64,000 nt of DNA from Gemmatimonadota bacterium (GTDB lineage: Bacteria; JAAXHH01), in contig JAPOYX010000198.1 in NCBI GenBank assembly GCA_026706345.1, positions 47,828 through 111,827 of the forward strand. The letters run 5' to 3'. Below, piece by piece: positions 31,588 through 33,662 of the stretch. The notes beneath the pieces were generated by a model that did not search any database, had not been told where the DNA came from, and worked only from the letters and a program-made list of their open reading frames with translations. The position numbers were made by a program, and so were the translations under genes. Every line of letters starts with the position of its first letter. Within the stretch, counting starts at the first letter, position 1.

Positions 31588-32364
31588 ATGGCCATAGCGT
31601 ACTTCGATTGCTTCTCCGGTATCAGCGGCGACATGATCCTGGGCGCGCTGGTGGACGCCGGCCTGGACTTCGATACCCTGAACAGTGAACTGAAGAAAAT
31701 GCCCCTCGAAGGCTACCGCCTCAGCCGGTCGACGGTGACCCGCCAACATATCGCGGGAACCAAGGTCGATGTCGCCGTTCGGACTTCGAGCGGCCGGGAA
31801 ATCATCGAAGGACCCGGCGAGGACGGACCTTATCACGACCACGGGGAAGCGAGGCACCTGAGCGACTTGACTTCCGTCATCGAAGACAGCACACTCGATG
31901 CCCCGGTCAAACACCAGGCCGCTCGGGTGTTCGATCAACTGGCGACAGCGGAAAGCGAGGTACACGGCATTTCGAAGCAGGAGGTGCACCTGCACGAAGT
32001 CAGCGGGGTGGACGCCATCGTCGACGTCGTGGGCGCCTGCATAGGCCTGGCCCTGCTCGACATACGACAGGTGTACGCCTCGGCACTGCCGTTGGGACGG
32101 GGGTTTATCCATTGCGCCCACGGCCTGATGCCGGTCCCCGCCCCGGGTGCGCTGGAACTGATGCGGGACATGCCGGTTTACCACACCGGGATCGAGGGCG
32201 AACTGGTTACACCGACCGGTGCCGCGTTTCTGAAAGCCACGGCCGACGGGCACGGTATCATGCCGAGGATGGTGTTGAGGAGGATCGGTTACGGCGCCGG
32301 CACCAAGGATTTCCCGGAGCATCCGAACCTGCTCCGGGTATGTATTGGCGACCCCCTGGATTAG
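31588..32364 (+). CDS. LarC-family (DUF111) protein, N-terminal domain only. It corresponds to the nickel-pincer cofactor LarC1 part.
   Basis: [31 protein letters not shown] is the hallmark LarC N-terminus. The ORF ends after 258 aa (full LarC is about 400-420 aa). No LarC2-like ORF follows. Confidence 0.75.
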   Translation: [258 protein letters not shown]

Positions 32365-32425
32365 ACCGGATCAGGTCGGGCGGACCGGGTAAGATGTCCG
32401 CCTCCGCTATGCGAATACCGTCATC

Positions 32426-33079
32426 ATGCTGCTCCAGCTCGCCCTGGACATTCCCCACGCCGCAGCGGTTCGCCGCCTGCTGGACGAGACCGCCTTCGGG
32501 GTGGATATCATCGAGCTCGGCACACCCCTGCTGATCCGTTACGGGACCGGCATCATCTCCGAGATCAGACGGGATTATCCCGAAACGAAGATCCTGGCGG
32601 ATCTCAAAATCGTTGATGCCGGCGCCCTGGAATCGGGCCTTGCCTTCGACGCGGGAGCGGATATCGTAACCGTGCTCGGGACGGCGCACCAGACTACACT
32701 CTGTGAAGCAGCCGAGCAGGCGAAGCAGTCCGGAGGCCGGATCATGGCCGACCTGATCACCGCACGCGAAGCGGATGAGGCCGTCCGCCTGGCCCATGCG
32801 CTGGACCGGGCCGGCATGGACTTCATCTGTCTTCACACGGCTTTTGACATACGGGGACAGGAGGATTCGGCGCCGATACCGGAACGAATCGACCGGGTGG
32901 GCGCAGTAGTTCACCGGGCGGGGCTGGCCGTCGCGGGTGGATTGAATCCCCGGATGATCGAGCGCCTGGTTCCCCACGATCCGGATATCGTGGTCGTGGG
33001 GCGTTACGTTACCGGAAACGTCGATCCCGGCGGGGCGGTCCGCCGGATCAGGGAGATCATGCATCGAACCGATGGATAA
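32426..33079 (+). CDS. hxlA: 3-hexulose-6-phosphate synthase. A KGPDC-type decarboxylase of the same family cannot be excluded.
   Basis: 217-aa OMPDC-fold family with LALDIPH...DIIELGTPLL...DLKIVDAG. Its adjacency and overlap with a SIS-domain PHI gene supports HPS. Confidence 0.7.
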   Translation: MLLQLALDIPHAAAVRRLLDETAFGVDIIELGTPLLIRYGTGIISEIRRDYPETKILADLKIVDAGALESGLAFDAGADIVTVLGTAHQTTLCEAAEQAKQSGGRIMADLITAREADEAVRLAHALDRAGMDFICLHTAFDIRGQEDSAPIPERIDRVGAVVHRAGLAVAGGLNPRMIERLVPHDPDIVVVGRYVTGNVDPGGAVRRIREIMHRTDG

Positions 33080-33662
33080 CGAGACAGCCTCTTCCCCGTT
33101 TGACGAAATCCGGCGGACTATCCTCGACGAGATGCGGCGGACGCTGAACCGGGTCTCATCCGAAGAAGTCGAAGCGCTCGTGCGGGAAGTCACGGAGGCC
33201 GGACGGGTCTTCGTCGCCGGCGCGGGACGTTCCGGGCTCGTCATGAAGGCCTTCGCCATGCGGCTCACGCAACTCGGCTTTCAGGTCCATGTGGTGGGTG
33301 AAACAACCACACCGGCGGTCAAATCGGGAGATCTGCTGCTGATCGGATCGGGATCGGGCGTAACGGAACGCCTCGTCCACTATGCCGGAAAAGCCGTCGA
33401 GGCCGACGCGCGGGTCGCGGTAGCGACCGCCGACCCGGGATCGCCCGCCGCCCGGCTGGCCGACCTGGTCGTCGTCATACCCGCGCCCACGCCGAAATCG
33501 TCGAAAGAGACCGGCGGCCAGGGACTTCGGTCGCACCAGCCGATGGCCACGCTCTTCGAACAGTGCCTCGGCGTGATGCTCGATGCCGGCGTCAAGCTGC
33601 TCATGGCGCAACTCGATGAAACCGAGCGCGGCATGTTTGCCCGCCACGCCAATCTTGAATAA
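33072..33662 (+). CDS. hxlB: 6-phospho-3-hexuloisomerase (SIS domain).
   Basis: SIS motif VFVAGAGRSGLVMKAFAMRLTQLG...LLLIGSGSGVTE, 196 aa. It overlaps the HPS stop by 8 bp, which indicates translational coupling. Confidence 0.75.
   Translation: MDNETASSPFDEIRRTILDEMRRTLNRVSSEEVEALVREVTEAGRVFVAGAGRSGLVMKAFAMRLTQLGFQVHVVGETTTPAVKSGDLLLIGSGSGVTERLVHYAGKAVEADARVAVATADPGSPAARLADLVVVIPAPTPKSSKETGGQGLRSHQPMATLFEQCLGVMLDAGVKLLMAQLDETERGMFARHANLE

Follow-up and report, generated by a model that had tools for sequence, protein, structure and literature searches.

What can the nickel-inserting half of the enzyme LarC do in a bacterium when its gene stops before the other half begins? LarC is, to our knowledge, the only known biological cyclometallase. 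A cryo-EM study from 2026 proposes that its LarC2 domain activates the ligand with cytidine monophosphate (CMP), that its LarC1 domain inserts the nickel and that the linker tethering the two is essential (PMC13510736). The locus that raises the question lies in a 64-kb stretch of contig JAPOYX010000198.1 from a marine Gemmatimonadota bacterium, referred to here as the window, where a stand-alone LarC1 of 258 residues is encoded at positions 31588..32364 of the forward strand. Downstream of it lie genes for two enzymes of the ribulose monophosphate (RuMP) pathway, 3-hexulose-6-phosphate synthase (HPS) and 6-phospho-3-hexuloisomerase (PHI). An initial annotation of the window had read these three genes as probably one transcription unit and their pairing as meaningful. 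We compared the locus with other LarC loci, which carry L-numbers below, and asked what the LarC1 gene is, how it came to stand alone and whether its neighbours bear on its role.

The LarC1 gene and its missing partner domain

Pfam and NCBIfam scans agree with the initial annotation that this is a LarC (DUF111) gene reduced to its N-terminal domain. The product matches the Pfam family Ni_insertion (PF01969) over profile positions 1–234 of 375 only (E 3e-88) and scores 208 bits, against a cutoff of 90, with the NCBIfam model TIGR00299.2 'nickel_LarC1', identifying it as the Ni-insertion domain of the nickel-pincer cofactor cyclometallase. It aligns end to end with the LarC1 domain of Moorella thermoacetica LarC (PDB 12bi–12bl; Sci Adv 2026, PMC13510736), covering residues 1–236 of the cryo-EM structure 12bi (E 5e-67). 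The reading frame closes where the linker between LarC1 and LarC2 would begin: G254-D255 correspond to Moorella G235-E236, and the protein terminates three residues past the position aligned to E236. Unlike the Moorella enzyme, it has neither the 13-residue linker (236–248) nor LarC2, the hexameric core that binds cytidine triphosphate (CTP) and performs CMPylation.

In LarC, nickel binding has been ascribed to a histidine cluster in LarC1 and nickel insertion to the adjacent acidic pocket, where E104 is the proposed nucleophile on the pyridinium ring, with CTP binding and CMPylation of the ligand assigned to LarC2; both the cluster and the pocket are essential by mutagenesis (PMC13510736). 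In Moorella numbering, the window protein shares with that enzyme the histidine cluster (H72, H108, H116, H118, H160, H226), the acidic pocket (D15, R71, E104, E119, D124, D128, E187) and the trimer-interface residues V107, H108, P166 and R231, and also carries Y180; it differs in having Ala at H70, and Gln at the H53-equivalent position, directly followed by a His. Across 100 aligned LarC1 domains, 11 positions (D15, E104, H108, H118, E119, D124, D128, H160, P166, E187 and R231) are invariant in 23 members of the clade to which the window protein belongs, as they are in 73 canonical LarCs. A His-rich insert, by contrast, is very variable in length across this clade.

Homologues of 258–298 residues grade from 90% to 56% identity with the window protein. 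More than 20 independent assemblies have the stop at the same place, as does each member of a monophyletic clade, and all 14 clade proteins aligned finish with the LarC1-only C-terminus LLRV(C/F)(I/L/V)Gxx-stop. An identical protein is encoded on three contigs in three ENA assemblies. Pairwise ratios of non-synonymous to synonymous substitution (dN/dS), computable for five of six relatives, range from 0.04 to 0.24, at or below those of the neighbouring BamA gene, and LarC1 evolves more slowly than HPS and PHI. Because the stop is the same clade-wide, no LarC2 is found in any frame and the gene is under purifying selection, we conclude that its short length is genuine. These grounds, together with the invariant residues, led us to reject both a truncated pseudogene and an error of assembly or reading frame, and the full-length LarC that the initial annotation had thought a corrected frameshift might restore did not appear. 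Judged from its sequence, the gene is an intact, selectively maintained and functional stand-alone LarC1 that would keep LarC1 chemistry. In a separate ENA sample, ERZ23496111, the Lon region (window positions 8137–10554) lies on scaffold_1255 and the LarC1 region (31588–32364) on scaffold_476; the window, in which both are joined, therefore stems from a less fragmented assembly, of the same organism or one nearly identical to it.

The initial annotation had also noted that no LarC2, LarB or LarE gene follows, which proved true of the whole window. None of the three was found in the 64 kb by tblastn, with the C-terminal domains of full-length homologues included among the queries, and none was found in the window or in any related LarC1-only locus by profile hidden Markov models run on six-frame translations (built from 70 LarC2, 25 LarE and 31 LarB sequences out of related loci). 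No clade locus has larB, larE or LarC2 within 10 kb, whereas larB or larE lies within 10 kb in about half of the canonical LarC loci. The other genes of the window are housekeeping or unrelated, among them those for Lon, ClpXP, trigger factor, DnaJ/GrpE, MutS2, DnaG, BamA, TamB, GlnE, FeoB and PhoH.

The LarC1-only family among other LarC loci

In a neighbour-joining tree of LarC1 domains, the window protein and the homologues that share its stop all fall into one clade on a single stem, split into two subclades and free of canonical members, with 56–100% identity to the window protein. Its hosts are marine or sponge-associated Gemmatimonadota and related bacteria, with the gene borne by the complete chromosomes OX638340.1, OZ252103.1 and OZ241920.1 and by ENA ERZ21861969 ctg21612c, and its sister group in the tree consists of LarCs from Poribacteria and sponge-associated Latescibacterota. 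Because the tree is distance-based and carries no support values, a single loss of LarC2 is parsimonious rather than proven. Among the matches listed in a metagenome scan, one was a further clade member (L102), the remainder being canonical LarCs of the background set. We found no earlier description of LarC1-only homologues in the literature searched, the coverage of which was incomplete, so that a prior mention is possible.

The background set, drawn from GTDB genomes and JGI metagenomes, numbers about 155 LarC loci outside the clade, and in nearly all of them LarC2 is fused in frame. Five Poribacteria loci and L184 instead have LarC2 in a different frame across a run of 9–11 adenines (A9–A11). 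Such split genes, seen in Poribacteria and relatives (L013, L020, L021, L023, L184), yield LarC1 calls of 254–290 residues that are about 50% identical to the window protein, but unlike the window gene they are followed, across the A-run, by a LarC2 open reading frame of 122–136 residues in another frame. Since that frame lies directly downstream, we take these to be split or frameshifted full LarCs, and short calls of this length (P0049, P0065) were discarded as candidates for LarC1-only proteins. The A-run sits in the linker region (L013 10808–10816, L020 10743–10753; also L014, L021, L023 and L184); it could reflect programmed frameshifting or transcriptional slippage, as for larC1/larC2 of Lactiplantibacillus plantarum, or homopolymer errors in long-read assemblies. 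The short-read metagenome-assembled genome (MAG) L021 also shows the LarC1/LarC2 frame split.

Only three non-clade loci have no LarC2 where the flank allows a judgement, namely L054 and L063, both from Desulfobacteraceae, and L164. None was found in the available flank, which extends up to 10 kb for L054 and L063 and to about 950 nt for L164. In these sporadic cases (L054 8168–10768; L063 7092–8886; L164 2102–2902), LarC is likewise cut off after the LarC1 domain, but unlike members of the window clade the genes sit in true lar clusters with larE, larB or both alongside (larE-larB-larC1 in a Desulfobacteraceae MAG). In the tree they are nested within full-length LarCs, which marks them as recent, independent events and not as an old family. 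No ornithine cyclodeaminase gene, a link to the dinucleotide cofactor NPAD discussed below, stands beside any of the three.

A free LarC1 polypeptide is not unprecedented, since L. plantarum has a separate LarC1 reading frame of about 260–270 residues (PMC13510736), followed immediately by larC2, joined to it by a programmed ribosomal frameshift, within a larA–E cluster. By contrast, no LarC2 lies within at least 30 kb to either side of the window LarC1, and its surroundings hold no lar genes.

Gene order, RuMP enzymes and the role of LarC1

The HPS reaction is the condensation of formaldehyde with ribulose-5-phosphate, the product of which PHI then isomerises to fructose-6-phosphate. Both identities given in the initial annotation stand, as do its coordinates for the three reading frames. 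The HPS gene (32426..33079, forward strand) encodes a 217-residue member of the OMP-decarboxylase suprafamily (PF00215) for which TIGR03128 RuMP_HxlA is by far the best model, at 183.7 bits just below its cutoff of 200; the best PDB matches, 3f4w, 9lj9 and 3ajx, are all HPS (E 1e-36 to 3e-25, against 1e-13 for KGPDC), and the motif E...DxKxxD can be read in the protein (IIELGTP, ADLKIVD). The PHI gene (33072..33662, forward strand) encodes a 196-residue SIS-domain protein (PF01380) that scores 218 bits with TIGR03127 RuMP_HxlB, above the cutoff of 160, and best matches Bacillus subtilis YckF/HxlB, the HPS-PHI fusion 9lj9 and MJ1247 in the PDB. The two frames share 8 nt, from the PHI start to the HPS stop (33072–33079), as had been noted, and in seven of eight subclade loci the overlap is again 8 nt, with 4 nt in L097; this overlap of reading frames suggests translational coupling. 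By these matches, the downstream pair are ordinary RuMP enzymes. Their nearest structural relatives are hxlAB of B. subtilis, rmpAB of Mycobacterium gastri and the archaeal HPS-PHI fusions. Like hxlAB and rmpAB, the window pair has the HPS gene first and a PHI gene whose start overlaps the HPS stop; unlike them, it lies 3' of LarC1 in a housekeeping backbone, its HPS falls slightly under the equivalog cutoff, and the Pfam lists of the window hold no HxlR-type regulator near it. The presence of both enzymes implies that marine and sponge-associated Gemmatimonadota of this group can fix or detoxify formaldehyde.

The initial annotation would have given up its reading had the adjacency of LarC1, HPS and PHI been confined to a single genome, which it is not. 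An entire Gemmatimonadota subclade has it, with LarC1 identities as low as 70%: in every locus examined at 70–100% identity to the window protein, the order is globin-like gene, LarC1, HPS, PHI. These loci are the window contig (L001), the metagenome loci L004 (with L005 and L006), L097/L098 and L182/L183, and the GTDB species L015–L019, which we tally as five GTDB species and four distinct metagenome sequences. The sister subclade (L007–L012, L099–L102), at 56–68% identity, shares a backbone of AhpC, DnaG, GHMP kinase, two Cof-type HAD phosphatases, often globin-CopC-CopD, then LarC1, a 540-residue protein, BamA and TamB. There, the slot after LarC1 is occupied by an alpha-L-arabinofuranosidase gene, or by ADH_zinc and arabinofuranosidase genes, and no HPS or PHI gene lies within 10 kb of LarC1; nor does one in any of the roughly 155 non-clade loci. 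We found the adjacency in no independent lineage. Since only one subclade has HPS and PHI beside LarC1, the arrangement arose once and was inherited with the local synteny, and because the entire DnaG-to-TamB region is syntenic in that subclade, conservation of the order carries little functional information. The claim of a meaningful LarC1–RuMP pairing is therefore not borne out: the adjacency is probably a lineage-specific gene order and incidental, and a functional coupling of LarC1 to RuMP is unsupported.

What remains is, in our view, of more interest than the RuMP adjacency. LarC1 has been kept alone over the long term in a bacterial lineage, with its catalytic residues intact and no lar genes nearby, which makes this orphan family a natural experiment on the LarC model and a test case for the current LarC mechanism: either the activation step is provided in trans or avoided altogether, or the LarC1 fold has some other function as well. 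The reading we favour, and hold to be fairly likely, is that the stand-alone LarC1 still inserts nickel into a pincer nucleotide and that its place beside the RuMP genes reflects inherited gene order and not a shared pathway. The family would have lost the CTP-binding LarC2 and the linker once and retained the rest since; the protein would bind Ni(II) on the histidine cluster, and the Ni–C/Ni–S pincer would be formed on the pyridinium-dithiocarboxylate nucleotide in the acidic pocket. The missing nucleotidyl activation might be supplied in trans by a LarC2-like partner encoded elsewhere or, alternatively, might be unnecessary if the substrate were already a dinucleotide. In one Gemmatimonadota subclade, HPS and PHI would have entered the slot that follows LarC1, and the three genes are probably co-transcribed.

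Molybdenum insertion offers an analogy without homology, in that it consists of the same two steps, nucleotidyl activation and then insertion of the metal, in which the nucleotide is released. Plants have both activities in one fused protein, Cnx1 G/E, and bacteria have them on the separate proteins MogA and MoeA, so a pair of this kind can work untethered. The folds and cofactors are unrelated to those of LarC, and for the LarC1-only protein a partner is hypothetical. The parallel between LarC and molybdenum insertion is drawn in the LarC paper itself (PMC13510736). As to a substrate that needs no activation, the AMPylated analogue P2TAD acts as a mimic of the CMPylated intermediate (PMC13510736), and NPAD, a naturally occurring pincer cofactor that is an adenine dinucleotide, is mentioned as reported in work cited by PMC13524815. 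That LarC1-only proteins are minimal, CTP-independent cyclometallases, placing Ni directly into a dinucleotide (for example P2TAD to NPAD) or another pre-activated ligand, strikes us as rather unlikely; if true, the LarC1 domain alone would be sufficient for biological Ni–C bond formation. A less likely variant would have the product serving a hypothetical nickel-pincer enzyme that acts on sugar phosphates, which would explain the retention of LarC1 beside HPS and PHI.

Several observations weigh against nickel insertion by a LarC1 whose neighbours are incidental. Deleting or altering the 13-residue linker (236–248) of Moorella LarC strongly reduced activity (PMC13510736), which implies that an untethered LarC2 may work poorly and argues against easy complementation in trans. 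A few sister-subclade members show variation at the R71 and H72 equivalents. The searches for lar genes covered the 64-kb window and about 20 kb per related locus. A query with the canonical LarC of the sponge MAG L068 gave no match on contigs as long as the Gemmatimonadota chromosomes that bear LarC1-only genes, a weak negative given that this MAG, labelled Gemmatimonadetes, apparently has its relatives in the Latescibacterota. The trio has stayed intact although the downstream 539-residue gene was lost in L015, L097 and L182, which leaves some room for selection on the unit. Finally, co-transcription is argued only from how closely the genes are spaced, how they are ordered and the lack of a terminator.

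In one rival reading, LarC1 is functionally coupled to RuMP, supplying nickel or a pincer cofactor to HPS, PHI or another formaldehyde or sugar-phosphate step from a dedicated operon. The genes lie on the same strand with a 61-nt spacer and no terminator between them, their order persists at LarC1 identities as low as 70%, also in loci that have lost the following gene, and new nickel-pincer enzymes acting on 5- and 6-carbon sugars have been found in non-LarA folds (PMC13524815). We nevertheless regard such coupling as very improbable, as the adjacency arose once within a wholly syntenic region, is missing from the sister subclade and from the roughly 155 other LarC loci, and joins LarC1 to two genes that evolve faster than it does. 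HPS is a Mg-dependent enzyme of the OMPDC family and PHI a metal-independent SIS isomerase, and we know of no nickel requirement for either.

A different possibility is that LarC1-only proteins have been repurposed for metal binding or delivery outside pincer chemistry, for example as a cytoplasmic Ni or Cu chaperone in genomes without LarB and LarE. The lack of lar genes within 10 kb of any clade locus would fit, and so would the great variation in length of the His-rich insert and, in the sister subclade, the position of the gene directly after globin-CopC-CopD copper-handling genes; yet about half of canonical LarC genes are likewise unlinked to larB or larE, CopC and CopD are absent from the window's own subclade, and a simple metal chaperone would have no need of a wholly invariant acidic pocket, E104 included. 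We judge this reading unlikely without being far-fetched. That the frame is instead what is left of a full-length LarC, whether as a pseudogene cut short or through an artefact of assembly or frameshift, is scarcely credible: it is some 150 residues shorter than canonical LarCs (400–450), and among the other short LarC calls there are genes broken at a poly-A run with LarC2 right behind it, but here nothing resembling LarC2 is present in any frame of the window or related loci, and the stop is shared across a clade of 56–100% identity whose catalytic residues are invariant and whose dN/dS is low, with the protein itself recurring unchanged in three assemblies.

Hairpins and neighbouring genes

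The gap between LarC1 and HPS, given as 62 bp in the initial annotation, is short as described but measures 61 nt (32365–32425), and it ranges from 40 to 69 nt across eight subclade loci, none of which has a U-tract terminator in this spacer. With the short same-strand spacing and the conserved gene order, this makes co-transcription of LarC1, HPS and PHI plausible, so that the single transcription unit proposed earlier stands as a plausible arrangement. Local folding of the spacers from the eight loci revealed a small hairpin in the window (GGGCGGAC...GTCCGCCT, 32378..32403, forward strand) and in four of the higher-GC relatives. Its GGCGGAC/GTCCGCC stem recurs in L004, L015 and L016 and takes a diverged, extended form in L018, and it is missing from L019 and from the lower-GC loci L097 and L182. 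Having no U-tract, it is not an intrinsic terminator.

Upstream of LarC1, a terminator scan recovered the hairpin that had been described as a strong terminator preceding the trio: a GC-rich RNA hairpin of 13–15 bp with a T-rich tail at 31535..31576 (forward strand). The hairpin proper (31535–31568) lies between LarC1 and the globin-like gene, leaving 19 nt from its end to the LarC1 ATG. The terminator-like features were thus confirmed, but a clean start of a transcription unit was not, since with so little room the LarC1 promoter must overlap the hairpin or lie upstream of it. The element is kept in all eight subclade loci, with a 13-bp stem, compensatory double changes at three pairs and G.U wobbles that pair only on the forward strand, which fits an RNA hairpin and not a protein operator; a search of Rfam returned no matching family, the NiCo riboswitch included. 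It is likely to be the intrinsic terminator of the upstream gene, perhaps with read-through, or a LarC1 leader element.

The gene upstream of this hairpin (30833..31507, forward strand) encodes a globin-like protein of 224 residues with a weak match to Bac_globin (PF01152, E 9e-5). Its hydrophobic N-terminus suggests a signal peptide or secretion, and its Asp/Glu-rich tail is built from 15-nt and 18-nt tandem repeats encoding DTDAEM units (31283–31319 and 31392–31474). By neighbourhood, orthologues stand upstream of LarC1 in most clade loci, among them L004, L097, L182, L007 and L099. Further upstream, two tandem Cof-type HAD phosphatase genes (28992–29819 and 29838–30668, forward strand; PF08282) precede LarC1 in every clade locus with enough flank and belong to the backbone of both subclades. 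Between these phosphatases and LarC1, the sister subclade has globin, CopC and CopD genes (L007 6496–8351, where CopD is present; L099 8759–9696).

On the far side of the trio, convergent with PHI, a conserved 539-residue protein is encoded on the reverse strand (33700–35319). It occurs in both subclades, is missing in L015, L097 and L182, and has as its only match a weak one to the beta-galactosidase trimerisation family PF08532 (E 3e-4). In one sister lineage, a homologue of zinc-type alcohol dehydrogenase/quinone oxidoreductase lies directly 3' of the LarC1-only gene (L100 6801–7769; L101 1625–2593); recent work found nickel-pincer enzymes among the proteins annotated as NAD(P)-dependent oxidoreductases beside lar genes (PMC13524815). 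The window also carries, about 12 kb beyond the LarC1 locus in the downstream direction, a metal-homeostasis group on the forward strand (44641–49903), comprising a DtxR-type iron-dependent repressor, a PepSY_TM protein and FeoB.

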